From a virus: a DNA stretch of 64,000 nt. Where the stretch lies: the IMG/VR virus record IMGVR_UViG_3300022916_000011, positions 13,966-77,965 of that record, one strand, 5' to 3'. The position numbers and the translations under genes were made by a program. Below are positions 1-26,453 of the stretch, piece by piece. Every line of letters begins with the position of its first letter. Within the stretch, counting starts at the first letter, position 1. Under the pieces are notes generated by a model. That model ran no database searches. It had not been told where the DNA came from and saw only the letters and a list, made by a program, of their open reading frames with translations.

Positions 1-312
1 CTCATCGACCCACATCAATTCATCTGTGTCATGGGAATCTCTTTCAATGAATGCGTTAAAGCAATCCACTACGTGCTTCACACAATGGAATCTAAACCCT
101 ATCTCTTCCAATCGTGCTAAGAGATTATCTTTGAACATCACACCAAGGAGTCTGGTATCGTTACAGCAGTGGATTCTTTTTTCACCATAGTCAACAAATA
201 AATGGCAAACCATTTGGGTTAGTGCTTTGGACATATCAAGGTACTGGTCAGCAACTTTATCTCCATACTGAGATAAAACATGATCATATTCCTCTTTCGC
301 ATAATTGTTCAT
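1..312 (-). CDS. hypothetical early-region protein, runs off window edge (MNNYAKEEYDHVLSQYG...)
   Basis: ATG at 312 preceded by GGAGGT SD; frame open to position 1. Confidence 0.7.
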   Translation of the reverse strand, partial: MNNYAKEEYDHVLSQYGDKVADQYLDMSKALTQMVCHLFVDYGEKRIHCCNDTRLLGVMFKDNLLARLEEIGFRFHCVKHVVDCFNAFIERDSHDTDELMWVDE

Positions 313-403
313 AACAACCTCCAATCTTCTAGGGTTTACATCAATGCTTCACTTCAAAGGGTGAAGTTATGGAAACCCTCACCCTTATCATCAAGCGTTG
401 AAG

Positions 404-853
404 TTACGGAGCGATATTCTCAGCAAATTTTCGCAAGTTACTCAATGCGGACATAAACTTGCTGAATTTCGGGTATGAATCGTGCAGGAGCTCACTGTAT
501 AACCACATCATATGTGGATCATTATACCCTTCATCATTCATGATTTCTATTTCCCGTACCAATGCTGAGAAATCATTGATCAGTTCGGGAGTAACATTGT
601 CGCTGAAGAAGAATAGGTCCCCATTAGCATCGTACTCTTGCGTGTATCCCAATTCTTCTAACCATTTTTCAACATCAGAGAGCATGGGATGATGTTTGAA
701 CTCTTCCCCGAATGCTCTGCACACATCGTCATAATGGAGTATCTTCACTTCATCAATGTTGTACCAAGGAATATCAGATGCTTTTTCCCCAATAACCATG
801 TTCAAACACGCTAACTCTGGTCTGTCCCAACAAGTCGCTCTTTCTTTTTTCAT
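404..853 (-). CDS. hypothetical acidic protein
   Basis: ORF; start moved to ATG 853, which follows GGAGGTtgtt. Confidence 0.75.
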   Translation of the reverse strand: MKKERATCWDRPELACLNMVIGEKASDIPWYNIDEVKILHYDDVCRAFGEEFKHHPMLSDVEKWLEELGYTQEYDANGDLFFFSDNVTPELINDFSALVREIEIMNDEGYNDPHMMWLYSELLHDSYPKFSKFMSALSNLRKFAENIAP

Positions 854-951
854 AACAACCTCCTTCATCTAAGGGTTTACAATCAATTCCTACATTCATG
901 CTCTTGACAATGTCCAGTCAAGAGCATGGTACGAGGGAACTAACTGATCGC

Positions 952-1311
952 TTATTTCACAGTTTTACCACAATCGGGACACACACCATCGTAGTGAGTA
1001 AATGAATACAGTGTCCCGCAATCATCACACCTGATAAGGCGATCATCGTCTGAGTAATCATCAAGGACCCACCATATACCCTGAGTCAGTTCAGCTTCTG
1101 CGGAAGTTTTAGCAGAGAGCGCACCATCCCAACCCCCTACCCATTTTTTGAACCAGAAGTGGAAGTCGTTCTGATCAAGCGCATCCAGTTTTTTGCGTAC
1201 CGTGTTACACTGTGAAAGGATGTCACTCGCATACATTAAACCATCATCAGCGGTCCAATCATTAACCTGTGATTCTACACTTTCTACGACTTCCAAAATT
1301 TCTTTTTTCAT
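952..1311 (-). CDS. hypothetical protein with C-terminal zinc ribbon
   Basis: CDDC...CPDC motif; GGAGGT SD before ATG 1311. Confidence 0.75.
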   Translation of the reverse strand: MKKEILEVVESVESQVNDWTADDGLMYASDILSQCNTVRKKLDALDQNDFHFWFKKWVGGWDGALSAKTSAEAELTQGIWWVLDDYSDDDRLIRCDDCGTLYSFTHYDGVCPDCGKTVK

Positions 1312-1325
1312 AACTACCTCCAATT

Positions 1326-1856
1326 TTACTTAGTTTTGACCAAACCAGACGATTTCGGTGGACACCATAACTTACCACGATCACCTGGACGTTTCTTCTT
1401 CTGGATGGGGTTATTCAACCACCCTTTCAGACTCTTCTTTTCTTTGGACAGTTTCTTGCTGCGCTGAATACCTGTTAGAATCTGGAACTTCTCGTTTCTC
1501 ACTGACTCAGCATGTTTAATAGAGACACCTTTGGAATGACAGTATTCACACAAACCGTCTGGAGCATAACACGTTTCATACCCGATAAAACCGGAACGTT
1601 TTTCGTCTGGTGGTGGTTCAAAATGGTAGGAAAGCATACCCAACCGTTTTCTCATTCTCTTGGAAGGTCTAATGCTACGAACTGAAGCATTCCCACAATG
1701 GACACACCTAGCAGAACCGATGTGATCATTGGACCCACTACCAGTAGCAGTTGTAACCCACGCAACCCTTGGAACCCACTGTTCTACATCTTTCGGGTCT
1801 GGACTAGGGGGGTTCAACCAATCTCTTCTTGGACGTATCATCTGAGTCGTACCCAT
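1326..1856 (-). CDS. hypothetical basic protein with CxxC pairs
   Basis: ORF with GAGGT SD; CVHC and CEYC motifs. Confidence 0.7.
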   Translation of the reverse strand: MGTTQMIRPRRDWLNPPSPDPKDVEQWVPRVAWVTTATGSGSNDHIGSARCVHCGNASVRSIRPSKRMRKRLGMLSYHFEPPPDEKRSGFIGYETCYAPDGLCEYCHSKGVSIKHAESVRNEKFQILTGIQRSKKLSKEKKSLKGWLNNPIQKKKRPGDRGKLWCPPKSSGLVKTK

Positions 1857-2222
1857 AACTGGAACCTCAATTAAGATTTTTAAGAAATTAACTGCTTGGA
1901 ACCATCAAACACCCCCACCATACAGAAGGTTTTAATGGCACCAAGCAATGACCTTGCTATTAACTACCTTTTAATGGATACAAGCGTAGTTCTTATAGAG
2001 GAATAGCAAAGTCATTCAAAAAAATTCTTTTTAAATGGATGCTCTGTCGGGTGAAATTCTTTTATCATGTACGTGTGGAACCCTAATCAAAACCTAACCT
2101 GTTTCACTACCCTGGAACCAAATGGTTGACCAGTATAAATAGTGGAGTCAAAACCGAGCGCAGCACAGAGACTCTAACTGGAGTAGGTTTGCTGAGTAAC
2201 CACGTAATTGGAATATCAGCTA

Positions 2223-2588
2223 TCACCCTTTATTTCTACACATCATCTTGGCTACATCACCACTGTCAACCGCACTTTCTCTGTCGGAACGGGTTGTCGC
2301 ATAACCCCAATGGAATACCGTGTCTCTCAACTTACTTACCTCATGCAACGGAAGCGTTTTCAGTCTTGCGGTAAAACAGTACATGGAACCTAAAGAATAG
2401 GTCAGTCTCTCTTTGGAAGCAGAATAGCTAAGGTCTTGAATGATAGCAAAAATGGAGGGTAATTTGAAGATACTATCAAAGCGGAAAGACTGTGTATCTT
2501 TGGAGTCAAACAACCTGACTAGATTGGTCTGGATTACGTTTTCAAGATGTGCTGATGAGATTAGAACGAAAGGAACCACCCTTGACAT
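2223..2588 (-). CDS. hypothetical protein
   Basis: ORF downstream of strong promoter; ATG 2588 with AGGT SD. Confidence 0.5.
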   Translation of the reverse strand: MSRVVPFVLISSAHLENVIQTNLVRLFDSKDTQSFRFDSIFKLPSIFAIIQDLSYSASKERLTYSLGSMYCFTARLKTLPLHEVSKLRDTVFHWGYATTRSDRESAVDSGDVAKMMCRNKG

Positions 2589-2757
2589 TGCAACCTGACG
2601 ATTACAACCACCCCTATGGATATTCTTCTCAAACCGCAAAGAAAAGGAACTAGACTTGCACCCCGTTGAATCAGTGACTTTCAAACTACCCATTCTGGAT
2701 CACCCCCTTTCTGAATGCTTTATTTTGTCGCTGGAAACTTCATTTGGTACTAACTTA

Positions 2758-2786
2758 ATACTACCAGAGTTCATTGGAAATGTCAA
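2758..2786 (-). promoter_or_regulatory. sigma-70-type promoter
   Basis: TTGACA-17 nt-TAGTAT on minus strand, AT-rich upstream sequence. Confidence 0.75.
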
Positions 2787-3621
2787 GTAAAAAAATGTAT
2801 AAAAATTATCTTTCTTGGGATAAAATTAAGTTAATTTCTAGGATAAAAAGTAACAGAAGGAATACCAATAATACTATGGACCTCGGAAGTAATCACTTGA
2901 TCTTCTTTTCCTAACATCTTCTTATATTAGATAAGGTGTCTCTTTGGCTATTACCATTGATGTAGGATGTACGTGCGTAGGTGATTCTTAGGGTTAGAGC
3001 TAGGATGTATGTTGATTAGTGCAGTTGTGTTAGGACATAGGTTAGCAGAGAGATTCAAAGGAATAATGTTGGGAGGTTAGGCTTAGTGCATAGAGTAGAG
3101 GGTTAGGAGTTGAGGAGTAGGTTATAAAGGTTTTTCTAGGAGAGGTATAAGAGTACAGGAATGAATATGCTGAGTATGCTCTGGATGGTAGCCCGTTCCT
3201 AAACATTGTTATGTTTCCGATGGTGTAGGCTGTAATCGATCCAAACTGCCTCTACAGAGGAATCTCAATATGATAAATCCTAATTTCAAAATGGACTGGA
3301 AATGTGAATGGGTATGCGAAAATACCCAATATATACCCAATAGTCCTTGATTCCATACCCAATCTTATACCCAATGGGTAGCCAAATATACCCATTTTTA
3401 CCCTCCATATTACCCAAAATAGCTCATTATATATAGTAATAGACACCTTGGAGCTGGAAAGATACCCCCTGAAGGGTAAGGGTCGCATAAATCGACCATG
3501 CGCTCGATCTTCAATGATTTCAACCACTTACAAAAGTATTTCCAACGTCAAACGCATCACCTCGTGCGTATTTGAGATTTTCCAAATTAAACCTTGATTT
3601 TCTCCTAGAAGTAGAGTAATG

Positions 3622-3634
3622 TAAATCATTGATT
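3622..3634 (-). promoter_or_regulatory. IHF consensus site
   Basis: AATCAATGATTTA matches WATCAANNNNTTR exactly. Confidence 0.45.
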
Positions 3635-4582
3635 AATGGACTATTTAAGTGGCTTACATGCCGATGCAGGACTTAAATACACAATAACAGATAGCCAAAT
3701 CACCTGTCAATCGGAAACTTTACCATTTCATTGCGGTAGGGAAGGGTAACTTAGGATGATAGTATAAAATAAAGGAATATTGGATGGCTTATAGTTAGGA
3801 GAATAGTGAGAGTTTGGAGGTTCGGACAAAGGAAACATTCCAACATCCCAAAAATTTTTTAGTCGCATAGGGTTTTGAATTTTTGGAAATGCGGAACTAT
3901 CGGATATCACTACATATATTATTTTTGGGGAAGAAGGGAAATTAGGCTCATATTTATTGGAAATACTAGCCTAAACCCCCCTTTATTCTCTCACTATTCT
4001 TGATTTACCCCTTCCTAACCCAAAATATAGATAATAGTGAGGTAAAAGAAGGGAAGTTAGGACCAAGTATATTAGACTATACTCCTTCACTTTTACATGT
4101 GTCTAGGGTTAAGGAGGGTTAATCAAAGTTTGGATATAGATTAAGTTTAAATATGCCATACTTTATGCCTAAGCCCAATGTTAAATTAACTAAATAAGTT
4201 AGGATGATGTTATGTTTTTCTTTATTCCTAAGTCTTAGCTAAACTTTGCTAGATTTCTAGGAATAACCCCCCTGAGTTAATTTTTAATACTTCCAAACTT
4301 TTTATCATAATAATCTTAGAGTTTGGAAGTTAGGAAATAGAATGGAAATAGGCCCCCACCCATACCCATGCATTACTTTTATCGTGGACGTTGATTGTGG
4401 TGGGGCTCAGACCCCTAGAGTTTGGACTCTGCAATTCATTTATACCCCTGATCCAAACTATCTAAGGTGATCCGGTGATTTTAGTACATTGTATAGAGTT
4501 AGGATATAGTTTGAAAGGGGCAGAATGTACCCCCACCCTCTTCCAAATGTTCGGAAGTTCGGCTGTTACTTTTTCTTAAGCC

Positions 4583-4616
4583 AAAAAAATACCCCCTCTA
4601 TGGTAGCAGGGGGTTT
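4583..4616 (-). terminator. intrinsic terminator
   Basis: ACCCCCT/AGGGGGT stem followed by U-tract, just after the stop of 4625..5011. Confidence 0.7.
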
Positions 4617-4624
4617 GTGGAATG

Positions 4625-5011
4625 TTAAATTTCTCGGGACACCCATTTGTCTTTATCGGTACGGAGGGTGATTACCGACTGGAACGAAACCAGTTTGAAA
4701 TCTTGACCGGAACCAAAAAAGACCACCCCATCAACCAGGATTACCGACCCCTGATCACGCATTCCCGCAAGGTGCGACCAGAGCGTGGACTTAACCTTCA
4801 GGTTGAAGTGATCGAGGACCCTCTTGTTCAGGACGGTCAACGCTTCACGGGTGTACTCATGACGATGGAGCGCACTGTTCAGGACCTGTGTACGGGTGTC
4901 GTACTTATGGATATTCACCATACCCCGCACCCCAAAATCAGGACGTTTAGCTTGGAATGCTCTCGTTACCGCAGTATGGACCGCATCGTTACCTCTGTCG
5001 TGATGTTTCAT
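4625..5011 (-). CDS. hypothetical protein, paralogue of 7129..7533
   Basis: shared blocks TRAFQ, NIHxYxTRTQVxNS, NKRxLxHFNLxxKST, SHLAGMxxQG, KWV; GAGGT SD before ATG 5011. Confidence 0.85.
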   Translation of the reverse strand: MKHHDRGNDAVHTAVTRAFQAKRPDFGVRGMVNIHKYDTRTQVLNSALHRHEYTREALTVLNKRVLDHFNLKVKSTLWSHLAGMRDQGSVILVDGVVFFGSGQDFKLVSFQSVITLRTDKDKWVSREI

Positions 5012-5067
5012 GGAATGACCTCGCTTTCTTGGGTGTTGAGTGAGGAACCCCCTCACTTCTTACTTAT

Positions 5068-5096
5068 AGTATATCAGGGTATGCAGGAAATGTCAA
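5068..5096 (-). promoter_or_regulatory. near-consensus sigma-70 promoter
   Basis: TTGACA-17 nt-TATACT on minus strand; hairpin AGTGAGG/CCTCACT follows at 5039-5057. Confidence 0.85.
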
Positions 5097-5137
5097 CAGA
5101 AAAATGCATTTTTCTTAGGAACCATGCACTTTTCTTT

Positions 5138-5530
5138 GGCTATTTTTTATACCCCCCCTTGTTTGGAAGTTCGGCTACTTTTCACTTAATTTCTTTTTTA
5201 AGGAAGTTAGGAACTCTTTTTTAAAGGAATTTTTTAGGATTATTAAACACTTACTTTTCGGACTACTTTTACTATTTTTTTCTTTTAAGGAAGTTAGGAT
5301 TCTTTTTAAAGGAAATTTTTTAGGCTTTCTTTTTCTTTTAAAATTTTTTAGGCTTTCTTTTTAAGGATTTCTTTCTTTTAGGAAGTTAGGCTGTTACTTT
5401 TTTTAAATTTTAGGATTCTTTTTAAAAGAAAACTTTTTAAGGATTTTAGGAAAGGCCCCCTCCGAATCTCAAAAATGAGTTAAACTTTTTTAGGAAGTTA
5501 GGAAACACCCCCACCCTAAAAAACAGCTTC
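5138..5530 (+). repeat. T-tract low-complexity field punctuated by AGGA/AGGC/CGGA
   Basis: repeated units such as ttttaggatt, ttttaggcttt, aggaagttagg. Confidence 0.8.
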
Positions 5531-5561
5531 CGGTATTTCAAGAAACTGTTTTTGTGGTGGG
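5510..5561 (-). terminator. hairpin closing the seven-gene array
   Basis: CCCACC..AAAAACAG / CTGTTTTT..GGTGGG stem directly after the stop at 5562. Confidence 0.5.
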
Positions 5562-5705
5562 TTACTTTCTACGGGGGTTGCGGTATCTTTTATCTGAGAA
5601 TTTTCTGGTTGATCCATCGGGGAGATCGGTAAATTTTTTGCACCTACCATTTTCAGCACTTTGACATTTGTTATATCGTATACAATCGAAACATGACCTT
5701 CTCAT
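5562..5705 (-). CDS. small Cys-rich basic protein (47 aa, MRRSCFDCIRYNKC...)
   Basis: manually translated; GAGGTG SD; same leader as neighbours. Confidence 0.65.
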   Translation of the reverse strand: MRRSCFDCIRYNKCQSAENGRCKKFTDLPDGSTRKFSDKRYRNPRRK

Positions 5706-5759
5706 AGCTGCACCTCTGGTATGGGGTTGTGGGGTTGCAGGTGCAACCCCCTGCTGCTG

Positions 5760-5942
5760 TTAAGGGGTATAGTAACTGAATGTACCCTGAATTGAACCGT
5801 CTTTGACAATCTCTACGCACCCACATGGGTACCATCTGATTACGTTGTTGGGGTCGGGGGTTTTTTTATCAGGGTACATACACATAACGTCTTTGTCTAC
5901 ATAGTCGCATTTACTACATTTGTGGGTTTCAATGGTCTGCAT
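5760..5942 (-). CDS. small Cys-rich protein
   Basis: CSKC and CGC motifs; GAGGTG SD. Confidence 0.75.
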   Translation of the reverse strand: MQTIETHKCSKCDYVDKDVMCMYPDKKTPDPNNVIRWYPCGCVEIVKDGSIQGTFSYYTP

Positions 5943-5996
5943 GATAACACCTCGAAAAAAGAATTTAGGGGTTGCAGGTGCAACCCCTGCTGCACG

Positions 5997-6221
5997 TTAT
6001 ACCCAATCGTATAGATATACCCTGTCAAAAGAAGTTAATTCAGCACCGTTGTTTTTTGCAATAGAGCGTAAATCGGTCAAGGTAAATCGTAACTGGTGTT
6101 TTTTATCAAGGTAACTTTGAACGTCAAGCATTTCTGCAATGTGAATAGATTGGTTATCTCTTGTCTCTTTTGCACCGCAATGATGCACCGCATGAAGCAC
6201 TAGCTCGACAATATTGACCAT
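5997..6221 (-). CDS. hypothetical protein
   Basis: ORF with GAGGTG SD. Confidence 0.75.
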   Translation of the reverse strand: MVNIVELVLHAVHHCGAKETRDNQSIHIAEMLDVQSYLDKKHQLRFTLTDLRSIAKNNGAELTSFDRVYLYDWV

Positions 6222-6250
6222 TGTGACACCTCGAAAATATGGGTTGACAG

Positions 6251-6367
6251 TTAGCTCACTATGAGGTCTAAAATCGCTTTGATCAATGGTGAGAAATGAT
6301 AACCGAAAGCGATACTACCGAAAAGACACGTTACACCTATGATGCTTTCAAATGCTAGTTGTGACAT
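6251..6367 (-). CDS. small membrane peptide (38 aa, MSQLAFESIIGV...)
   Basis: GAGGTG SD before ATG 6367; hydrophobic. Confidence 0.65.
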   Translation of the reverse strand: MSQLAFESIIGVTCLFGSIAFGYHFSPLIKAILDLIVS

Positions 6368-6443
6368 GGGAACACCTCTTATTTGGGGTTGACAGTTAAA
6401 CTTCAATCTGAGTTGCAGGGTTGCAACCCAGAATGAAACCGAA

Positions 6444-6686
6444 CTATGCAAGGTGAATATGGTTGTTCTCGTCAAGTACCATACACATGCACCTATCAGC
6501 AGCACTCTCGAAAACTTCAGGTGAAAGCATAACTTTTGAACGGTAGTTGTCGGGTACTTCAGAGAAGTTGTTAAAGTTGTATTCTCTCGAAAACTTCTCA
6601 CTGAGAAAGCGTGAAGATACTACACCGTGAATTGAGATTGTGTCGCTGATAAATCTGGTAACAATAGAGTCAAGTTCTGTAAACAT
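6444..6686 (-). CDS. hypothetical protein
   Basis: ORF with GAGGTG SD. Confidence 0.75.
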   Translation of the reverse strand: MFTELDSIVTRFISDTISIHGVVSSRFLSEKFSREYNFNNFSEVPDNYRSKVMLSPEVFESAADRCMCMVLDENNHIHLA

Positions 6687-6738
6687 GGTAACACCTCGAA
6701 AAAAGGGTTTAGGGGTTGCAAGCGCAACCCCTGAAATT

Positions 6739-7026
6739 TTATCTGATAGAGTCTTTACAGTATTGGTTCATTTCGCAGAAACTCTTGATAGCAGACTCAT
6801 GAAAATTTGTGGTATGACCAATTTCACCGAAAAAATAATTGACAAGTCTGGTAAGATTGTCAAGGTCAATTTCAGTTCTGATATAAACCATACCAACATC
6901 AATCAATTGACCATACTGAGAAATAATTTCTCTGATCATATAAACCATATCAATACTTTCATAGTTTTCAATAAATTTCTCAGCACTCACGTAAATTTGG
7001 TCGGTATCAATTTCTCGAATTTTCAT
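6739..7026 (-). CDS. hypothetical protein
   Basis: ATG 7026 with AAGGTG SD. Confidence 0.75.
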   Translation of the reverse strand: MKIREIDTDQIYVSAEKFIENYESIDMVYMIREIISQYGQLIDVGMVYIRTEIDLDNLTRLVNYFFGEIGHTTNFHESAIKSFCEMNQYCKDSIR

Positions 7027-7128
7027 AACTTCACCTTGAAATATGGGTTTGGTTGTTCTCACTTCTCAAGAGATTGCAGGGTTGCAACCCCTTGAGAAAT
7101 GGGGTTGCATTTCTGCAACCCCTGATTT

Positions 7129-7533
7129 TTAGCTGATTCTTGCAACCCATTTTTCATCATCTATGCGCATGGTGATAATGCTCTTGAAACTTGCGCTTTT
7201 GTAAATTGCGCTTGTGAAGAAACCTTTACCGTAAGAAACCCCATCTATGATGATGGTTGCACCCTGTTTTGACATACCCGCTAAATGCGAGTAAAAGGTA
7301 CTTTTGATTATCAAGTTGAAATGCTTCAAAGTTCTTTTATTCATTACCTCATGTTCTTCTTTGGTAAAATTGTGGTTTAGCAGCATAGAGTTCATCACCT
7401 GAGTTCTGGTGCTGTATCGGTGAATGTTAAAGACCGTCTTCACCCCAAAATGCTCTTGTTTTGATTGAAATGCTCTTGTAATGCTCTTGACTTTCACGGG
7501 TTTCTGAATCTCATTTCTGATAAATCTTCTCAT
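7129..7533 (-). CDS. hypothetical protein, first gene of sigma-54-type unit, paralogue of 4625..5011
   Basis: ATG 7533 with GAGGTG SD; aligns by eye with 4625..5011. Confidence 0.85.
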   Translation of the reverse strand: MRRFIRNEIQKPVKVKSITRAFQSKQEHFGVKTVFNIHRYSTRTQVMNSMLLNHNFTKEEHEVMNKRTLKHFNLIIKSTFYSHLAGMSKQGATIIIDGVSYGKGFFTSAIYKSASFKSIITMRIDDEKWVARIS

Positions 7534-7585
7534 TTTGTTCACCTCATATTTGGGTTGACGTTTTGTTGAACTGCAAAACTTATAA

Positions 7586-7602
7586 TGCAATCACCATACC
7601 AA
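7586..7602 (-). promoter_or_regulatory. sigma-54 (-24/-12) promoter
   Basis: TTGGTATGGTGATTGCA = GG-N10-GC with TTGCA, about 50 nt upstream of ATG 7533. Confidence 0.7.
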
Positions 7603-7640
7603 AAAACTTTTTATTGCAGTAAGAAAAATTAAAATACTTG

Positions 7641-7654
7641 TAAGTCACTGTTTT
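7641..7654 (-). promoter_or_regulatory. IHF-like site between sigma-54 promoter and enhancer
   Basis: AAACAGTGACTTA (imperfect WATCAANNNNTTR) in A-tract context. Confidence 0.4.
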
Positions 7655-7712
7655 TAAAGTAAAAGAAAATTAAAAAAAATTATTTTGCTGCATTGTATCA
7701 TGTGTTCAAAAA

Positions 7713-7828
7713 GTGTCTTATTTGAGACACCCCGAAAAATAAATATGAGACACATGCTTAACTAGCTGTTTTTGTTCACTTTTTTGTGTCTCACTGTTTT
7801 TTTACAATTATGGTACATATTGAGACAC
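7713..7828. promoter_or_regulatory. candidate upstream activator sites (TGAGACAC half-sites)
   Basis: near-palindrome GTGTCTTATTTGAGACAC at 7713-7730; half-sites at 7746, 7786 (inverted) and 7821. Confidence 0.6.
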
Positions 7829-8030
7829 TTTTTTATTCAATCAATTCAATATGTTAGCTGTTTTTGCTTCTGAAATTTCGCTCACACTGAACCAAATGGT
7901 CAAAGTCACATACTGGTATGGGTTGATGGGTTGCTTTACAGTGAAGGGTTGTTTTTGTGCTTCTCAGCGCATATTCTGGGTACAGGTAATGTCAAGAAAG
8001 ACCACCACGACCACTTGGTGTTGCCTCCCC

Positions 8031-8193
8031 AAAAATAGGCAGGAAATCCTCAACTTCATTCCTCAGCCTACTTCCAATCAAAAATAGGCAGGAAATCCTC
8101 AACTTCACTCCAATAAAAAATAGGCAGGAAATCCGGAGAAAAATAGGGGTCATTTCCAATTAACCCCCACCTAAAAAAATAGGCAGAAAAATC
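8031..8193 (+). repeat. direct repeats AAAAATAGGCAGGAAATCC
   Basis: 28 bp identical copies at 8031 and 8080; shorter or variant copies at ~8116, 8139, 8175. Confidence 0.9.
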
Positions 8194-8208
8194 ACCAGAA
8201 AATAAACC

Positions 8209-8238
8209 TTGACATTCTAGTAGTTGTAGTAGTAGAGT
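8209..8238 (+). promoter_or_regulatory. sigma-70-type promoter for the rightward block
   Basis: TTGACA-18 nt-TAGAGT. Confidence 0.5.
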
Positions 8239-8270
8239 AGTTCAAACATCAAAATAGAGAAGGGGGAAGG

Positions 8271-8429
8271 ATGATTAACATAGCATTCGGGTTAGGGGTT
8301 ATGGCCAGTCTTTATTTCACAGTAGGTTTTATCAGTTGCATCAAAGCAGCGGATTCAAGATATTCCACCTTTGGTTTCTGTTTAAGTATCAGTTGGGGGA
8401 TAACCGCTTATTTAGGGAGTTTGATATAA
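8271..8429 (+). CDS. small membrane protein (52 aa)
   Basis: manually translated; two hydrophobic segments; stop overlaps next start. Confidence 0.55.
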   Translation: MINIAFGLGVMASLYFTVGFISCIKAADSRYSTFGFCLSISWGITAYLGSLI

Positions 8430-8626
8430 TGGAAGAAGAGACTAAGATTGTAGTTGGTAAAGGGGATCATCGACCTAGTAGTAGGAATTGTATTCCTACA
8501 GATCTTGAGCTTTGTGCTGATAGTAGAAGAGAAGAATGCCCTTACTACATCAAGGTTATTGTTGATACTAAAGAGGTTAGTTTTTATCAAGGATTTTGTG
8601 GTTGGGGATTTAGAAAGGAGGAATAA
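8429..8626 (+). CDS. hypothetical Cys-containing protein
   Basis: TAATG coupling at both ends. Confidence 0.65.
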   Translation: MEEETKIVVGKGDHRPSSRNCIPTDLELCADSRREECPYYIKVIVDTKEVSFYQGFCGWGFRKEE

Positions 8627-8748
8627 TGTTTAGCTTTACGATTCATATTTGGCACTGGCGATGGAAACCTCATTTCTTTAGTTCACGGGAACTTCATGAG
8701 ATTATATTTAGTTGGTTATGTTTTTCTTTTGAGATAGATTGGAGTTAA
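8626..8748 (+). CDS. small Trp/Phe-rich protein (40 aa)
   Basis: AGGAGG SD; fills gap between neighbours. Confidence 0.5.
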   Translation: MFSFTIHIWHWRWKPHFFSSRELHEIIFSWLCFSFEIDWS

Positions 8749-8749
8749 A

Positions 8750-9106
8750 ATGAAAAGAATATGTGGATTTTGTCATTTACCATTTTCAGAAGATGCTATG
8801 ATTGGAATTGAGAGGGTAACTTTTGATGCGTTGGAACATCCTGATACTGAATTTTTTGCTTATCATGGCGACGAAAAAGATATAATACCTGTATGTGAAC
8901 CTTGCTATTCTGAAAAATCAGGAATTAAGAAAGAGTTTGCGAATTTGCCACCTTCTTTGCTGAAACATCAATATCCTTCAATAAAAGTAATAGAAAAAGA
9001 AAAGTATAGAAGTATGCCTTTAGTAAATCAGAGTGAAAGTATGATACGGGTTATTTTTACCTGTTCCATAAATGATTGGAGACAAATGCGTAAGGAGTTT
9101 TGCTGA
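8750..9106 (+). CDS. hypothetical zinc-binding protein
   Basis: CGFC and CEPC motifs. Confidence 0.7.
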   Translation: MKRICGFCHLPFSEDAMIGIERVTFDALEHPDTEFFAYHGDEKDIIPVCEPCYSEKSGIKKEFANLPPSLLKHQYPSIKVIEKEKYRSMPLVNQSESMIRVIFTCSINDWRQMRKEFC

Positions 9107-9453
9107 TGGATACTTATACAAAAGCAAAACTAGAAGAGGGTAAAAGAATTGGTAAAACTCCTTGGTGTGCTTCTGGTAATGTAGAAGCTTATTTATATAA
9201 TTATTTAAATCCACCTGGAGATAGAGAGCAGTACCCCCAAGAAACATATCATGAAGCACAATTAAGGTATGTAGAAGAAGGAGAAATTACACAGGAAGAA
9301 TATGAGGAAAGAATGAGGAAAGATTTAGAATTTCAGCATTGGCAATTAAGGAACATTGCTGATAATGCTTTAAAGAAAATGAAAGAAGTTGGAATTCTAG
9401 ATGAATATCTGTCGAAATATTATTTAAAGGATACAAATGATGGTCCAAGTTAA
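9106..9453 (+). CDS. hypothetical protein
   Basis: AAGGAG SD; TGATG coupling. Confidence 0.7.
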   Translation: MDTYTKAKLEEGKRIGKTPWCASGNVEAYLYNYLNPPGDREQYPQETYHEAQLRYVEEGEITQEEYEERMRKDLEFQHWQLRNIADNALKKMKEVGILDEYLSKYYLKDTNDGPS

Positions 9454-9661
9454 TCATACCATGTACACAGTGCAGAAGTGTTCTCTTACAGAGGATGAGC
9501 TTTATGGTAATAGTCATGCTAGTAAAGATGGATATGATACTGTATGTGGATTAGAGATAAACCATCATTGGTATATTATCAATAATACCTATGATGGGGA
9601 ATATAATTGTAAAAAGTGTGCTAAGATTTTAGAGGAGAATAGGATAAATGGAGTATTCTGA
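9437..9661 (+). CDS. hypothetical zinc-binding protein
   Basis: H..TVCG..CKKC pattern. Confidence 0.65.
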   Translation: MMVQVNHTMYTVQKCSLTEDELYGNSHASKDGYDTVCGLEINHHWYIINNTYDGEYNCKKCAKILEENRINGVF

Positions 9662-11945
9662 GAACGCTTTGAATGTATTCAAGAAATTGTACTTTAAGAA
9701 AGATGAAGGAGGAAATCTTTTAGAGGATAATCCTGATGAAGTATTTAAAAGGGTATCGGTATTTATATCTGATGATATAAATGATAGCATGAAATGGGAA
9801 AAAAGATTTTATGATATGATGAAAGATGGATATTTTAGACCGAATACTCCTTGTTTGATGAATGCAGGGGTACAAGAGAAACCACAGACAGCAGCATGTT
9901 TTGTTGGGGATATGGAGGATGACCTTTGCTCTATCCTGGATTTTGATCGTGAAGCAGCATTGGTTTTTGCTAGTGGAAGTGGGATAGGTATCAATTTTGG
10001 TACTTTGCGGGAAAGAGGAGCAGCTTTGAGTAGTGGAGGAGAAAGTAGTGGTCCTTTTGCCTTTATGAAAAAGTTAGCATCTACGGGTGAAGCGGTTAAA
10101 AGTGGGGGAAGAAGTAGACGTGCCGCTATTATGAGTATGTTCTTTGATGATCATCCGGACTTATTGGAGTTTATTACTATTAAAAATGGTGTAGATCAAG
10201 ATTTACGATCTATGAACCTTTCTGTGGCAGCAAGTGATGCTTTTATGAAAGCAGTTAAGGATGGTAGTAGTTGGGAATTGTGTGGTGTTATAGATGGTAG
10301 GATTAAAAGCACACATAATGCCAGAGATATTTTTGATCTGATTGCTACGAATGCACATAAAAGTGGAGATCCTGGTATCTGGTTCATTGATAGAGCTAAT
10401 GCAGATAATGGATTAAACAAACAGTATGGTAGTATCACCAGTACAAATCCTTGTGGTGAACAGTCCTTGTTACCTCACGGTGCTTGTGCTTTAGCATCTA
10501 TCAATCTAGCTAAGTTTGTAGTGGAAGATGGCAAATTTGATTATGAAAAGTTTAGAGAAATTGTTACATATGGAACTTATTTCCTCGATTTCATGATTGA
10601 AAAGAGTGGATACCCTACAAAAGATTATGAGGATATGGCTAAGAATACTAGACCACTTGGTTTAGGTATTATGGGTTTAGCGGATATGTTGTGTTTACTG
10701 GAAATTCCTTATGATAGTCAAGAAGCTTATATACTTTGTGGAAATATAGCGGAAGTGTTAACACAAGAGTCAATTGAAGCTTCAATGAAATTGGCAGAAG
10801 ATTATGGAGCGTTCCCAGCTTTTAACAATAATATTAATGGTATGACTGAATTATGTGAAAAGTTTGGTTTTCATGACGATGTACTCAATATTAAACCTCT
10901 TAGAAATTCTAGTTGGACTACAATAGCACCTACAGGTACAATTTCTATTTCTGCTGATTGCTCTCCAGGGATGGAACCTCTTTTCGGTATCACCTACACA
11001 AAGAATATAGCGGATTCAGATGAAAAATGGATATTTGTTAATCCAATTTTTGAAAGTTTACACCATGATAAATCTTGGTATAAGGAAGCAGTCGAGAGAA
11101 TTGAATTGAATCATGGTTCATGTCAAGGAATAGAGTGTGTACCTTTAGAAGTCAGGAGGGTATGGAAGACAGCACATGATATTGATTGGAAAGATCGTAT
11201 TGAAATGCAAGCACACCTTCAAACGTATATCTCTAATGCTATTTCATCTACTATAAACCTACCTAGATCGGCTACAGTAGACGAAATCAAAGAGATGTAT
11301 CTCCTTGCGTGGCAAAAAGGACTAAAAGGAATTACGGTGTATCGTGACGGTTCTCTTGACTGTCAACCAGTGGAATTTGAAAAAGAAAAAGAGAAACCAC
11401 AAAAGAAAGTAGAGAAATTGTGTAAAGGAAGACCTAAAATTCGTGACGGTAAAACTTATGAAGTAGCTACTGGACATGGAAATGTCTTTATTACAGTAAA
11501 TCATGATTGTAATGGCAAGATATTTGAAATATTTAATGCTGGTGGAAAAGGTGGAGGTAAAAATGCTGCAAAACTTGAGGCTATAGGTCGTTTAGTATCA
11601 TTGGCATTACAGTATAATGTTCCAATTGACGAAATTGCTTCTCAATTGATCAATATAGGGGATGGAAGTATTGCTTGGGATAAATTAGATCCAAATGATA
11701 CAAAATCAACACCTATATTGAGTATACCTGATGCTATTGGAAAAGTTTTGAAAAAGTTTTATTCTAATAAAAATGGTATGGAAGTGAATATGATCGTTGA
11801 GCAGGAAAGTATCATTTTAGAAGATACACCAGTTGAATGTGCAGAACCAGAGAATAAACAACTACTTTGTCCTGAGTGTGGGGGTAATGCAGAAATGAAA
11901 GAAGGATGTCTTTTCTGTCCTAGTTGTGGCTCAATGTGTTCATAA
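9648..11945 (+). CDS. nrdJ: adenosylcobalamin-dependent (class II) ribonucleotide reductase with C-terminal TSCPD-like and zinc-ribbon region
   Basis: PNTPCLMNAG, TNPCGEQ, RPLGLG, TTIAPTGTIS, KGITVYRDGS; C-terminal CPECG..CPSCG; no beta subunit nearby. Confidence 0.9.
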   Translation: MEYSENALNVFKKLYFKKDEGGNLLEDNPDEVFKRVSVFISDDINDSMKWEKRFYDMMKDGYFRPNTPCLMNAGVQEKPQTAACFVGDMEDDLCSILDFDREAALVFASGSGIGINFGTLRERGAALSSGGESSGPFAFMKKLASTGEAVKSGGRSRRAAIMSMFFDDHPDLLEFITIKNGVDQDLRSMNLSVAASDAFMKAVKDGSSWELCGVIDGRIKSTHNARDIFDLIATNAHKSGDPGIWFIDRANADNGLNKQYGSITSTNPCGEQSLLPHGACALASINLAKFVVEDGKFDYEKFREIVTYGTYFLDFMIEKSGYPTKDYEDMAKNTRPLGLGIMGLADMLCLLEIPYDSQEAYILCGNIAEVLTQESIEASMKLAEDYGAFPAFNNNINGMTELCEKFGFHDDVLNIKPLRNSSWTTIAPTGTISISADCSPGMEPLFGITYTKNIADSDEKWIFVNPIFESLHHDKSWYKEAVERIELNHGSCQGIECVPLEVRRVWKTAHDIDWKDRIEMQAHLQTYISNAISSTINLPRSATVDEIKEMYLLAWQKGLKGITVYRDGSLDCQPVEFEKEKEKPQKKVEKLCKGRPKIRDGKTYEVATGHGNVFITVNHDCNGKIFEIFNAGGKGGGKNAAKLEAIGRLVSLALQYNVPIDEIASQLINIGDGSIAWDKLDPNDTKSTPILSIPDAIGKVLKKFYSNKNGMEVNMIVEQESIILEDTPVECAEPENKQLLCPECGGNAEMKEGCLFCPSCGSMCS

Positions 11946-15597: not shown

Positions 15598-15828
15598 ATG
15601 GTGGAAGAAATAAAGTTAGAAAAAGAATCTTTGTGTCTGGATTGTGAACATTTGTTTGTTGCTACTGCTCAAGGGGAAAAACCAGAGTTATTCACTAGAT
15701 CGGTTTGTTTAAAAGATAAGGATCTTTTTGATCACTTATGGAATATGGCGCAGGATGTCTTTTTAGAAAAGAAAAATGACGCTTCTATTCCTCATATAAT
15801 TGAATGTTCGCAGTATTCAGGAGAATAA
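15598..15828 (+). CDS. hypothetical Cys-containing protein
   Basis: CLDC..C..CSQY. Confidence 0.65.
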   Translation: MVEEIKLEKESLCLDCEHLFVATAQGEKPELFTRSVCLKDKDLFDHLWNMAQDVFLEKKNDASIPHIIECSQYSGE

Positions 15829-15829
15829 T

Positions 15830-16702
15830 ATGAAGAAATTCGTGTTACTCGGTGCGGCAGGATTTGTTGCACCTCGCCATATGCAGGCGATAAAAGACGT
15901 TGGTGGTGAGTTAGTTGCTATAATGGACCCCTCTGATAGTGTGGGTATTGTGGATTCATATTTTTCTAATGCTGCGTACTTTAAAACATTTGAAAGGTTT
16001 GATCGTCATTGCTCCATGAGAGGGGATATAGATTACGTTTCTATTGCAAGTCCGAACCATTTACATGACGCACATTGTCGTTTTGCTTTACGAATTGGAG
16101 CGGACGCCATTTGTGAAAAACCTTTGGTATTAAGAGAGAAAAACCTTGATCAGTTGCTTAAATTAGAGAAACAAACAGGTAAAAGGGTTTGGAATATCTT
16201 GCAATTACGGTTAAGTGATGTTTATAAGAGGATTATTTCTCATATTAATGAAATAGACGATGGACATTTACTTGATATTTCATTGGATTACTTTGCTCCA
16301 AGGGGTCGTTGGTACGACTTTAGTTGGAAGATGTCTGAGGAACAGTCAGGTGGCCTTGAATGTAATATAGGGATTCATTTACTGGATCTTCTTTGTGAAT
16401 TTTTTGGTCATTGGGATATGGTTTCAGCTTATGACAAAGATATAATGGGAAGGAACATATACTTTTCTGTAGAATTTGCACATGCTACTGTTTATGTGGA
16501 ACTATCTCTTGACAGATCAGAGAAAAGGGAACTCACTATAGATGGAGTTTCTTTTGACCTTACCCCTAATATGAAAAATTTGCACACAAAGAGTTATGAA
16601 CAGATTTTAGCAGGGAAAGGTTTTGGTATTGAAGAAGCAAGGCAGGCTGTATCTTTATGCGATGAATTGCGTGATATATCTTTTGAAAGGAGGTATAAAT
16701 GA
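15830..16702 (+). CDS. wbpB: Gfo/Idh/MocA oxidoreductase, WbpB/WlbA-like UDP-GlcNAcA 3-dehydrogenase
   Basis: GAAGFVAPRH, DPSDSVG, SIASPNHLHDAH, CEKPL, NIGIH. Confidence 0.85.
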   Translation: MKKFVLLGAAGFVAPRHMQAIKDVGGELVAIMDPSDSVGIVDSYFSNAAYFKTFERFDRHCSMRGDIDYVSIASPNHLHDAHCRFALRIGADAICEKPLVLREKNLDQLLKLEKQTGKRVWNILQLRLSDVYKRIISHINEIDDGHLLDISLDYFAPRGRWYDFSWKMSEEQSGGLECNIGIHLLDLLCEFFGHWDMVSAYDKDIMGRNIYFSVEFAHATVYVELSLDRSEKRELTIDGVSFDLTPNMKNLHTKSYEQILAGKGFGIEEARQAVSLCDELRDISFERRYK

Positions 16703-17196
16703 GAGATGATATGAGAGAAACAGGTGACAATGTTCAAATTCATCCAACTGCAAGAGTGGATTACTGTTATATGGGGAAGAATATTAAAATTTGGCATAAT
16801 TCTCATATTTGTGACAGGGCAGAAATTGGGGATAATTGTATGATCGGTCAGAATGTCTACATTGGACCAGATGTTAAAATTGGAAAAGATTGTAGAATCC
16901 AGAATAACGCTTATATACCAGAAGGTGTCATTATTGGGGATTTTGTTTTTATTGGACCTGGAGTAACATTCACTAATGTTAAGTATCCTGATGCATTGAC
17001 AGATCAAAGTGGTAATTTTTTGACTACTAAGGTTATGGCTGGTGTGGTAATTGGTGCTAATGCGACAATCTTGCCAGGACTAGAGATTGGTAGTGAGAGT
17101 TTTGTGGGGGCAGGTTCTGTTGTTACAAAAGATGTTGAAAATGGAGAAACTGTGGTTGGTAATCCAGCAAGAAATTTTGATAATGGGAGAAAGTAA
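16699..17196 (+). CDS. wbpD: hexapeptide-repeat N-acetyltransferase, WbpD/WlbB-like
   Basis: IWHNSHI, IGQNVYIG, IQNN, FTNVKYP, VVGNPAR. Confidence 0.8.
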   Translation: MRDDMRETGDNVQIHPTARVDYCYMGKNIKIWHNSHICDRAEIGDNCMIGQNVYIGPDVKIGKDCRIQNNAYIPEGVIIGDFVFIGPGVTFTNVKYPDALTDQSGNFLTTKVMAGVVIGANATILPGLEIGSESFVGAGSVVTKDVENGETVVGNPARNFDNGRK

Positions 17197-17649
17197 ATGA
17201 AAGACAATGTTATACAAATTGAAAATGATATAAAGTTAGCTGTTGTGTGTATGCCTGGTTTAGAGTCATTTCTTCCAGATATTGTGCATAGTTTAGAAGA
17301 AAACTATTCTGTACAGACATGCTATAGTAAGGATATGAATGAAATTAAAGATGTTGTGGAATGGTGCGATATTGTATGGATCGAATGGGCCAATGAACTT
17401 GCTATCCATATTACCAATGAATTACCAATTGAAGACAAACAGGTGATTATAAGGTTGCATTCGTATGAAGCTTTATCCGGGTATTGTACGCAAATAAAAT
17501 GGGAAAAGGTAGATGGTCTTATACTAGTTGCACAACATATAAAGGATATATTAAAAAACCAAAATATTATTTTACCGGCAGATTTGAGAACGTACATTAT
17601 TCCTAATGGTGTAGATTGTGATAAATTCAGGAGGGTAGTTAATGGCTAG
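17197..17649 (+). CDS. N-terminal half of a GT-B (GT4-like) glycosyltransferase
   Basis: DIVWIEW, RLHSYE, ends IIPNGVDCDKF. Confidence 0.75.
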   Translation: MKDNVIQIENDIKLAVVCMPGLESFLPDIVHSLEENYSVQTCYSKDMNEIKDVVEWCDIVWIEWANELAIHITNELPIEDKQVIIRLHSYEALSGYCTQIKWEKVDGLILVAQHIKDILKNQNIILPADLRTYIIPNGVDCDKFRRVVNG

Positions 17650-18040
17650 AGGAAACTTTGTGAACTGGGATTCTTTAAAAGAAACTTATAACAGGATGCA
17701 TAATACGCAGTATAAAACAAGTAAAGAATGGGTCATAGAGCTATACAATAAGCATAAAAAATATGTCAGTCCTGTATCAGAAGAATTAGGGGTTAGTTTT
17801 AATACGGTTAGTAAATATTTGGATGGTCTGGGTGTTCTGGAAAGAAAACCTAAAGGTGGAAATAACTATATAAATAGACCTATGGGTAAAAAAGAGCAGT
17901 TATTTTTAGGAATAACGGAAAAAACTATGTTGGAGTTAACTAGAAAGCAAGTAATGGAAAGATGCGGAATATCGCATACTACGTTTAATAAATTGGCAAA
18001 AAAGTACGGAAGAACTTATTTGAAAGGAAGAAGCGCATGA
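17642..18040 (+). CDS. double-HTH DNA-binding protein between the glycosyltransferase halves
   Basis: VSEELGVSFNTVSKYL and QVMERCGISHTTFNKL; AGGAGG SD. Confidence 0.65.
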   Translation: MARGNFVNWDSLKETYNRMHNTQYKTSKEWVIELYNKHKKYVSPVSEELGVSFNTVSKYLDGLGVLERKPKGGNNYINRPMGKKEQLFLGITEKTMLELTRKQVMERCGISHTTFNKLAKKYGRTYLKGRSA

Positions 18041-20220: not shown

Positions 20221-20228
20221 TTTTTCTC

Positions 20229-20258
20229 TTGACTTTTACATGTATAATGTGGTATAAA
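20229..20258 (+). promoter_or_regulatory. sigma-70-type promoter
   Basis: TTGACT-18 nt-TATAAA with TG extension. Confidence 0.5.
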
Positions 20259-20277
20259 GTATGTAAATTAAATTAAA

Positions 20278-20322
20278 ATAAAGATTAGTAAGGGGAGGTT
20301 ATCTTCTCTTACTAATCTTTAT
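20278..20322. promoter_or_regulatory. long hairpin (~20 bp stem) just upstream of an SD
   Basis: ATAAAGATTAGTAAG..CTTACTAATCTTTAT. Confidence 0.7.
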
Positions 20323-20348
20323 AAAGAAAGGAGACAATAAATTAAATT

Positions 20349-20633
20349 ATGCGGAGAAAAAAGAAAATACCAAGAAAGAAGAAATATGATGTAGTATTGA
20401 ACAATCATGCTAAGAAAAGGGTTTGGGAAAGATATTCTATTGAATTTACTAATGCTGATTTGAACAAAATAATTGCCAAGATTCATAATGGGGATGCGGT
20501 GTTTGTAGAAGGAAAGACTAATACTAGAACTGTTCATAAGATTGAGTACGAAGGAACTGATTTTTTAGTTTTGTACAGCAGAAGTATGAAAAGAATTGTT
20601 ACATTTCTACCAATGGAGAATTATCATGCGTGA
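20349..20633 (+). CDS. hypothetical protein, possible RelE/BrnT-like nuclease fold
   Basis: HAKKRVWER N-terminal motif, IVTFLP C-terminus. Confidence 0.5.
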   Translation: MRRKKKIPRKKKYDVVLNNHAKKRVWERYSIEFTNADLNKIIAKIHNGDAVFVEGKTNTRTVHKIEYEGTDFLVLYSRSMKRIVTFLPMENYHA

Positions 20634-20829
20634 TAAGATTAAAGCTAGAATATTAGATGAATTAGAAATGAGAGGTTGGACTATAGTTGAGGGTACAGAA
20701 AACTTGATTCCACCGGATTCATTATGGGAAAAGAAACCAAAAGAGTTTTTCGTGTATGATGCTGTTGATGTGGAAGAATTACTGAATAAAGAATTTTTTG
20801 AAAAAGTTTTAATGGAGGAGGGGTTATAA
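20626..20829 (+). CDS. hypothetical protein
   Basis: coupled ORF with GGAG SD. Confidence 0.65.
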   Translation: MRDKIKARILDELEMRGWTIVEGTENLIPPDSLWEKKPKEFFVYDAVDVEELLNKEFFEKVLMEEGL

Positions 20830-21476
20830 TGGGGTGGGAAGATGATTTGATTGCTACATTAGAAGATGAAATAAAAAAAGATTCTACTTCTGGTCTTTAC
20901 GATGAGGATTTTTATAATGCACACGTTAAGTATAAACCCATTTATAGTTTCCTGGGGGATTTGATAGTCGCCACTCTTGAACCGAAATCTGTTATTGACT
21001 TGGGTTGTGGGTGCGGTTTCCTTCTAGAAAGATTGAAAGAGCATGGTGTTTCAACTCTTAAAGGGATTGACGGTAGTGATCAAGCTGAATCTGCTTGGAG
21101 TGAAGATATTAAAACCTTTGCAGAAGTACATGATCTTGTGAAATTCAAACCAGAAGGAAGGTATGATCTTGCTGTTTGTATGGAAGTAGCAGAGCATATT
21201 CCTCAAGATAAATCTTCTAGAGTCGTTAAAGTTGTGACAAGTGCAGCTAGTAAGTTTGTATGGTGGACTGCTGCTGTACCAGGACAGGGTGGTACAGGAC
21301 ATGTAAATTGTCAGAGCATTTGTTATTGGGTAAGGGAATTTGAAAATCAAGGGTTTGTACCCGCATGGGAATTAACCTATGATCTAAAAACAGAAATGTT
21401 GAAAATTCCAGAAATATGTATGTCATTCCCATGGTTTAGGGATAATTTAATTCTTTTTAAGAGGGTGGGAAAATGA
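20829..21476 (+). CDS. class I SAM-dependent methyltransferase
   Basis: VIDLGCGCG, CMEVAEHI, AAVPGQGGTGHVN. Confidence 0.85.
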   Translation: MGWEDDLIATLEDEIKKDSTSGLYDEDFYNAHVKYKPIYSFLGDLIVATLEPKSVIDLGCGCGFLLERLKEHGVSTLKGIDGSDQAESAWSEDIKTFAEVHDLVKFKPEGRYDLAVCMEVAEHIPQDKSSRVVKVVTSAASKFVWWTAAVPGQGGTGHVNCQSICYWVREFENQGFVPAWELTYDLKTEMLKIPEICMSFPWFRDNLILFKRVGK

Positions 21477-21601
21477 ATAATGATGAAGAAGAACAAATTC
21501 CTAATCTCAATAAGCATGAAAGTGAGTTGAGAAAACATAGGAAAAAGAGAAAGATAAAAAGTAAAATGTCCAAACGGTCAAGAAAGAAAAATAGGAGGTA
21601 A
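21473..21601 (+). CDS. small highly basic protein (42 aa)
   Basis: manually translated; ATGA overlap; K/R-rich. Confidence 0.5.
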   Translation: MNNDEEEQIPNLNKHESELRKHRKKRKIKSKMSKRSRKKNRR

Positions 21602-21603
21602 AC

Positions 21604-22302: not shown

Positions 22303-22304
22303 AA

Positions 22305-25962: not shown

Positions 25963-25975
25963 AGGAACTAGAATA

Positions 25976-26158: not shown

Positions 26159-26167
26159 GGGGTTAAA

Positions 26168-26452: not shown

Positions 26453-26453
26453 A

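Follow-up and report, generated by a model that had tools for sequence, protein, structure and literature searches.

Why does a phage keep one 2.4-kb block of its genome almost entirely free of four three-base words that it repeats at short intervals elsewhere? The question is raised by the viral record IMGVR_UViG_3300022916_000011, a single 77,965-bp contig from which we analysed bases 13966–77965 (the window, 64,000 nucleotides; positions are those of the window, and negative positions lie to the left of its start). Between 5622 and 8022, the words GGA, GGC, GCC and TCC, which form one site when both strands are read (GGM/KCC; M, A or C; K, G or T), are represented by a single GGA on the plus strand (6369–6371), with GGC, GCC and TCC all at zero, so both strands are cleared. 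Across the genome outside this zone the same duplex site recurs about every 25–40 bp. Together, the site-free block and this even spacing, here called the ruler, suggest an undescribed system that marks or reads phage DNA.

The site-free zone and its contents

The depletion was first described in a reading of the letters alone (the sequence-only reading), which placed it at 5624–8022 on both strands, with one GGA, no GGC, GCC or TCC and about 80 sites expected. The recount agrees on each point: 90 sites are expected in the zone by the rates found elsewhere in the genome (66.9 GGA/TCC plus 23.4 GGC/GCC) and 84 by a first-order Markov model of the zone itself, and the Poisson probability of one site or fewer is about 1e-35. 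The nearest outer sites are TCC at 5613 and GGA at 5621 on the left and GCC at 8023 on the right, leaving gaps of 1654 and 748 bp between sites, where no other gap in the contig exceeds 176 bp; similar gaps at random elsewhere, which would have spoken against the claim, were not found. In a table of all three-base words in the zone, exactly GGA, GGC, GCC and TCC stand out as depleted. Totals of GG and CC are normal, with GGT (61), GGG (35), ACC and CCC raised about 1.7–2.2-fold, in keeping with the earlier remark that GG and CC runs remain common, and GA steps other than GGA are not depleted.

The zone consists of seven small leftward open reading frames (ORFs; g1–g7) and a 489-bp control region, and both kinds of DNA are cleared, as had been claimed. 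Resampling the seven ORFs by genome codon usage gave 34 sites (minimum 22 of 500), and permuting the synonymous codons of each gene gave 16 (minimum 7), against none observed; this is the codon-preserving shuffle that the sequence-only reading had proposed as a check. Gly and Ala occur in the zone proteins at half their genome frequency. Set against the codon nulls, the absence of sites and the low Gly and Ala content indicate that the ban is paid for in codon choice, at codon junctions and probably in amino-acid choice. The 489 non-coding bp (7534–8022) are equally free of sites. The zone and its lone site, genes and control region are:

5622–8022, both strands: core zone without GGA, GGC, TCC or GCC; sole exception at 6369
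6369–6371, plus strand: lone zone site, reading TCC in the sense direction and placed after the Shine-Dalgarno sequence of g4 but before its ATG (GAGGTGTTCCCATG)
7129–7533, minus strand: g1, 134 aa, weak winged-helix-like fold, paralogue of gP
6739–7026, minus strand: g2, 95 aa, no family match
6444–6686, minus strand: g3, 80 aa, no family match
6251–6367, minus strand: g4, 38 aa, hydrophobic peptide
5997–6221, minus strand: g5, 74 aa, no family match
5760–5942, minus strand: g6, 60 aa, Cys-rich
5562–5705, minus strand: g7, 47 aa, Cys-rich and basic; last ~60 nt outside the zone
5731–5750, 5968–5987, 6412–6429, 6712–6731, 7074–7090 and 7101–7122: intergenic hairpins GGGGTTGCA-n2-4-TGCAACCCC, built from allowed words only
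7534–8022: site-free control region with a sigma-54-like element, an extended -10 candidate and four TGAGACAC sites

PHROG searches returned no match for g1–g7, Pfam searches covering g1 and g2 returned none, and the neighbouring small ORFs tested were also without match. The signals of the zone are written within the same restriction. The hairpins proved to be of the GGGGTTGCA and TGCAACCCC type that had been described, whilst the Shine-Dalgarno sequence GAGGTG, ascribed earlier to the zone genes in general, precedes six of the seven, the other having AAGGTG. The sigma-54-like TGGTAT box reported previously is also present, as TGGTAT-n5-TTGCA at ~7585–7600 on the minus strand, with exact -24/-12 spacing, ~50 nt before g1 and followed by an A/T-rich stretch. 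Four TGAGACAC sites (7723–7828, one inverted) lie 120–230 bp upstream of this element, a pattern that is 4-fold over chance in the window, and an extended -10 promoter candidate occupies 7692–7719 on the minus strand. No strong sigma-70 promoter was found in the zone, the candidates being only sigma-54-like or extended -10; that the zone genes are the earliest expressed is therefore something that we infer.

Site density jumps at 8023, the right edge of the zone, and repeat fields lie on both sides:

3072–5503, plus strand: mostly non-coding field that ends at the left boundary and is broken by the gP unit; GGAAGTTMGGM occurs in it 11 times, always on the same strand
8023–8200, plus strand: right boundary array with three copies of ATAGGCAGGAAATCC (8035, 8084 and 8120) and 18 motif words in 178 bp
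8209–8238, plus strand: sigma-70-like promoter of the rightward operon (TTGACA-18-TAGAGT)

Several conventional causes of word avoidance fit poorly. GATC, GTAC, AGCT, TCGA and GCNGC are retained in the zone, and the doubt that the sequence-only reading cast on classical restriction-site avoidance was well placed: such avoidance concerns words of 4–8 bp, usually palindromic, whereas the unit avoided here is a non-palindromic three-base site and four-base palindromes are kept. Avoidance of a protospacer adjacent motif (PAM) of a clustered regularly interspaced short palindromic repeat (CRISPR) system was dropped as CC/GG steps remain, and we know of no PAM equal to GGM/KCC. Deaminase hypermutation was dropped given that the zone has intact genes and no fall in GC content, and RNA-structure avoidance given the enrichment of GGT/ACC and GGG/CCC.

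Site spacing and strand use outside the zone

The ruler and two neighbouring leftward units with a strand rule of their own (here termed tier-2) are located as follows:

1–3200: most regular part of the ruler inside the window (coefficient of variation (CV) of spacing 0.31), continuing leftwards through contig positions 1–13965
4581–5137, minus strand: tier-2 unit A, with promoter TTGACA-17-TATACT (5068–5096), gP (4625–5011) and a terminator at ~4585–4615
1320–2908, minus strand: tier-2 unit B, with promoter TTGACA-17-TAGTAT (2758–2786) and ORFs at 2223–2693 and 1326–1856

In the left arm, GGM/KCC sites have a mean spacing of 24–30 bp, a CV of 0.31–0.47 and a longest gap of 51–78 bp, against a CV of ~0.9 and gaps above 100 bp in the nulls. 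The stretch from -3464 to 2900 holds 223 sites (mean spacing 28.5 bp, CV 0.31, longest gap 51 bp, 6% of spacings under 15 bp), compared with a CV of 0.90 (minimum 0.76) and a longest gap of 155 bp (minimum 103) under a second-order Markov null. Coding constraint gives no such evenness: the 16 left-arm ORFs have a CV of 0.42 and a longest gap of 51 bp, and permuting their synonymous codons yields 0.84 (minimum 0.76) and 124 bp (minimum 84). The CV is 0.47 in the far-left 13.7 kb, and the right arm is weaker yet still beyond its null (0.68–0.79 against 0.91–0.93). Overall, this spacing relative to the nulls indicates that the phage keeps GGM/KCC sites and does not merely avoid them.

The regularity is specific to this site. 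In each part of the genome, GGA and GGM surpass the rest of the 64 trinucleotides in evenness of spacing, and GGM/KCC ranks first in both arms among 128 strand-symmetrised three-base motifs, whilst GGK, GGN, GA and AGG show no spacing regularity. Evenness grows when GGA and GGC are pooled and again when the two strands are pooled (in the far left, p falls from 3e-16 to 2e-29), which identifies the duplex site as the unit. Spacings peak at 24–41 bp, with few short ones and a bounded longest gap, and 10.5-bp phasing is absent from them.

Within the tier-2 units the ruler is combined with a purge of one strand. On their sense strand, GGA (2 against 33 expected), GGC (0 against 14) and GCC (2 against 15) are nearly absent, whilst TCC exceeds its expectation (58 against 35.5). 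When the codons of the three tier-2 genes were resampled by genome usage without altering the proteins, 18.8 GGA, 7.4 GGC, 6.0 GCC and 14.5 TCC were predicted, where 2, 0, 1 and 41 were observed. Over the 2146 bp of the two units, the plus strand carries 64 GGA, 2 GGC, 2 TCC and no GCC; site orientation is thus 66:2, compared with 129:429 in adjacent leftward genes. The GGC share of sites is 3%, against 21–24% elsewhere (p = 8e-6 and 8e-5), GGC/GCC sites being excluded in both orientations. The purge runs from promoter to terminator in unit A (limits 4580–5138) and from promoter to stop codon in unit B (1319–2909), where no terminator was seen at the end of the purge. Both promoters are near-consensus sigma-70 with TG extensions.

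The tier-2 sense strand therefore bans exactly the G-containing words of the four-word set or, equivalently, the template strand lacks the C-containing words; in GGC/GCC sites each strand contains both G and C. The lone exception in the zone, too, reads TCC on the sense strand. Such base logic suits a reader attentive to one kind of base on one strand, and it is not predicted by a polar protein roadblock, by orientation-only evasion of Type III enzymes or by a single RNA motif. The paralogues g1 (zone) and gP (unit A), 53% identical, show in codon alignment one family written under two rules. In unit B, GGA on the plus strand recurs every 24–51 bp (successive spacings include +30, +30, +30, +37, +39, +39, +24 and +37), and the evenness of these antisense words argues that the ruler is a property of the DNA and not an effect of coding or translation.

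The leftward genes at 1–5600 differ from all other genes in having their GGA on the antisense strand, so that site strand is uncoupled there from gene direction. The switch to the usual strand pattern occurs near 0–1320, where the two orientations alternate and spacing is unchanged.

Candidate explanations for the site

Tentatively, and as a reading that we lean towards without considering it probable, GGM/KCC is the target of a covalent DNA mark directed by the phage, probably a bulky base modification, and the zone a mark-free island. The site would be used by the phage itself, for example for a sequence-specific, bulky modification added after replication. Incoming virion DNA would bear the mark at every site, and host RNA polymerase or regulators would be hindered by marks placed on the wrong strand. 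Any gene required ahead of replication would then have either no mark, as in the zone, or marks confined to the harmless strand, as in tier-2, where the compromise would retain the ruler and spare one strand; the remaining genes could await new, still unmarked copies. The mechanically simplest version would be a bulky adduct borne on cytosine and kept off the template strand, and an adduct on cytosine would account for the exclusion of C-containing words from that strand. A guanine-borne mark kept off the sense strand would fit the counts equally well. A site that is kept at intervals, enriched on the permitted strand of tier-2 and packed into arrays favours the phage's own mark over a target of attack. 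The sequence-only reading had offered a bulky modification context, a protein-binding target and a host-defence target as options, and had proposed that the first-expressed DNA is left clear for host RNA polymerase to read. Its bulky modification gains, over simple defence avoidance, from the ruler and the base-specific strand rule, neither of which it had described, and loses from the lack of a modification gene in the contig, a fragment of 48% completeness by CheckV.

A more elaborate and decidedly doubtful form of the idea is an infection timetable written in the placement of three-base sites. An adduct about every 30 bp, perhaps a glycan from the sugar cluster described below, would shield the DNA, a mark on the template strand would silence genes until unmarked copies were available, and the genes required immediately would be site-free or have sites on the harmless strand only. 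If true, this would be an undescribed layer of phage genome organization.

Known phage modification systems offer partial parallels. Phage DpdA modifies DNA after replication at GA plus GGC in CAjan (PMC7544227) and at GA in phage iggy (PMC10484667). These are phage-encoded, post-replicative marks at motifs of two to three bases, as is proposed for the present phage, where a mark is only the suggested reading; GGC is common to CAjan and this phage, and GGT, untargeted in CAjan, is unrestricted here. They differ in that a DpdA/TGT gene was not found in the contig and that GA is undepleted here outside GGA. Of the preQ0 pathway (FolE, QueD, QueE and QueC), one weak, generic radical-SAM protein was seen (L001:2495-3280), no family-level search having been made for the other genes. 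The parallel with CAjan drawn in the sequence-only reading is unsupported as to motif, which is GGM here and GA plus GGC there. A full-text term search of PMC7544227 and PMC10484667 found no mention of motif-free zones, rulers, strand rules or even spacing. A second class of systems uses a phage C5-methyltransferase acting mostly at GpC, followed by TET enzymes and glycosyltransferases (PMC8256090; bioRxiv 10.1101/2023.12.21.572611), whilst T-dioxygenases act at NTC or NTG (PMC13229309). The C5-methyltransferase, 5mYOX (TET) and glycosyltransferase pathway shares a short motif, post-replicative action and sugars placed on cytosine, and the contig has many glycosyltransferases and sugar enzymes; PF00145 and PF12851 are not in it, the known motif differs, and these papers are without a genome-level layout of this kind. 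Broader searches of the literature likewise found no publication describing such motif-free zones, rulers or strand rules.

Several points weigh against the favoured reading. The gene search that had been suggested at the outset found no DpdA/TGT (PF01702), C5-methyltransferase (PF00145), TET/JBP (PF12851) or ThyA-like gene in the 78-kb contig, and the PF01702 controls responded; given the completeness of the contig, this absence is weak evidence. The sugar cluster may instead serve glycosylation of the virion or the host surface. Host polymerase reads the glucosylated hydroxymethylcytosine DNA of T4, which shows that an adduct in the major groove need not block it. A mark does not explain why both strands of the zone are cleared when restricting sites to one strand suffices in the adjacent units, or why spacings under ~15–18 bp are avoided. 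The last ~100 nt of the zone operon hold three motif words, one of them (plus strand, 5613) a sense-strand GGA within g7. About 45 related loci or contigs, either distant relatives or other genome regions, have neither hole nor ruler, and the recurrence in related phages for which the sequence-only reading had proposed to scan was thus not seen.

If the ruler and hole do reflect a DNA mark, the motif of an unknown modification system in uncultured phages could be revealed by sequence, together with the strand that matters and the genes that must act before replication. A computational screen would become possible (the spacing CV of all three-base motifs plus the longest gap), and there would be a concrete answer to how heavily modified genomes are read when infection begins. 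By whatever mechanism it arises, the recurrence of a three-base site about every 30 bp over tens of kb of coding DNA constrains protein-coding sequence strongly and in a way that is unexplained.

The first alternative, which we consider unlikely, is that the zone evades an activity that cuts or nicks at GGM, whether a host defence or the phage's own nuclease for degrading host DNA, and must survive unprotected like the first-step-transfer (FST) DNA of T5. The complete clearance of both strands and the sharp edges suit this, as does the fact that the phage avoids one classical site (CGCG, 0 against 26.7 expected). Small genes without family adjoin a repeat-rich non-coding field, as at the FST border of T5 and BF23 (PMC10644984), and in T5 relatives defences act only with sites inside the FST region (PMC10644984). 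The resemblance to T5/BF23 extends to small genes of the host-takeover type, opposed units and a long, repeat-rich non-coding neighbour. As to strong host promoters, consensus sigma-70 promoters lie at 5096 and 2786 and a repeat field at 3072–5503, the zone itself having only its sigma-54-like and extended -10 candidates. In T5, by contrast, the absent sites are ordinary 5–13-bp restriction or CRISPR targets, with no three-base ban, ruler or strand rule. No homologues of the T5 pre-early genes A1, A2 and dmp were found among PHROG/Pfam matches in the zone and the neighbouring small ORFs tested, and no T5-type terminal repeat was seen in the contig fragment. The single orientation of tier-2 sites also recalls the strand bias by which phages evade Type III enzymes. 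As summarized in PMC10644984, T7 has Type III sites of 5–6 bp that are strand-biased across the genome, which resembles the one-orientation sites of the two tier-2 units; in T7, however, the bias is genome-wide, sites are not evenly spaced and no island is completely free of them.

Three features of the site distribution oppose such an activity. A target of attack should be minimized everywhere, and here it is regular, with longest gaps of ~50 bp in the left arm; sites are crowded into arrays where the zone begins and ends; and orientation alone cannot explain the exclusion of GGC/GCC beside enriched GGA in tier-2. We know of no bacterial or phage nuclease of this three-base specificity, the nearest being nickases of chlorella viruses, which also counts against it.

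Quite unlikely, in our estimate, is that GGM sites are docking points for a DNA-coating protein, about one per 30 bp, for which the winged-helix-like g1/gP would be a candidate, leaving the zone uncoated. The spacing resembles close-packed footprints (peak at 24–41 bp, few short spacings, bounded gaps), and paired-site arrays of GGAAGTTMGGM (11 copies) and ATAGGCAGGAAATCC (three copies) flank the zone. The predicted g1/gP model is of moderate quality (predicted local distance difference test score 76), with a helix-helix-helix-strand-strand core in g1, and almost all structural matches of the g1 model are winged-helix domains; these matches are weak (Z 4–5.4), and a Foldseek search of PDB and an Atlas search with g1 yielded nothing usable. 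A bound protein should also treat GGA and GGC in the same orientation alike, whereas tier-2 has 64 and 2; three base pairs are scant for protein recognition, and the spacings are without 10.5-bp phasing.

It is very unlikely that the constraint acts on RNA, with early mRNAs avoiding GGA and GGC because of a ribonuclease or RNA-binding repressor (a CsrA-like GGA reader or a toxin endoribonuclease). Consistent with this, the sense strand lacks both words in all three leftward units and Shine-Dalgarno sequences are shifted to GAGGTG. Against it, clearance in the zone extends equally to the antisense strand and to the 489 non-coding bp, the ban on sense-strand GCC suits a duplex site and not a single RNA motif, the ruler is antisense in unit B and strongest with both strands pooled, and the unit B purge ends at a stop codon where no terminator was seen.

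Highly improbable is a role of GGM/KCC as a primase trinucleotide or fork signal, with the zone as an origin-like region from which priming is excluded: primases do read strand-specific trinucleotides and the dominant site strand switches near window position 0, but priming requires neither even spacing nor strand pooling, the switch mostly tracks gene direction except at 0–5600, and neither replication genes nor an iteron or AT-rich origin layout was identified in the zone.

The source contig and its relatives

The contig is a linear fragment (GC content 36.6%) with both ends inside genes and without end repeats. It encodes tailed-phage functions (portal, TerL, scaffold, major head protein, adaptors and tape measure protein) and a class II-type ribonucleotide reductase (RNR), and no replication genes were seen in it. 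Rfam and tRNA scans of window positions 1–10000 were both empty. The tape measure protein (44966–56026, 3686 aa) implies an exceptionally long tail; an N4-like virion RNA polymerase with hairpin promoters was considered and rejected, the 3686-aa ORF being this tape measure protein. Terminase profiles match two separate stretches of TerL (32610–35156, 848 aa), 10–154 and 544–835, and the gap between them is consistent with a large insertion such as an intein.

Genes for sugar-nucleotide enzymes and glycosyltransferases form a ~15-kb cluster at 15800–30874, with a further gene at 38575–39810. The contig has at least four glycosyltransferase domains together with sugar-nucleotide enzymes:

18037–20220: GT1/GT2 fusion in the sugar cluster
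22997–24106: glycosyltransferase in the sugar cluster
38575–39810: GT2-TPR gene in the head module

Other members of the cluster are a MocA-type oxidoreductase, a hexapeptide acetyltransferase, methyltransferases, a sulfotransferase, a split transketolase and epimerases/dehydratases.

The absence of CGCG extends over all 77,965 bp (the expectation of 26.7 being a second-order estimate), unlike GCGC (46), CCGG (36) and GGCC (48). It looks like classical avoidance of a CGCG-specific restriction system, separate from the case of GGM.

There was no DNA match to phage records, the hairpin pattern gave only single chance matches in IMG/VR, without the purge, and single-protein scans of IMG/VR with TerL and RNR found nothing. 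Alignment of the portal gave 80 loci, of which the close ones (64–75% identity) were short and distant from the zone, and four long, distant contigs (portal 44–49%, GC content 42%) had neither hole nor ruler. A further 30 metagenome loci from the RNR alignment, some with upstream flanks, contained no comparable hole or ruler. The g1/gP family is rare, with four remote homologues among 1.8 billion representatives, none of which was located in IMG/VR or JGI contigs. Two of these homologues are long proteins, one of 1355 aa with 17 matched stretches and the other of 1082 aa with 11, and so look like repeat arrays of this domain.

Two metagenome contigs with RNR 68–70% identical to that of the phage (L109:3527-4251 and L122:3546-4270) each have 724 bp without CG[AC] (log10 p about -5), ending in the first ~120 bp of the RNR gene. 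This stretch could represent a small zone for a different motif or simply an AT-rich spacer.

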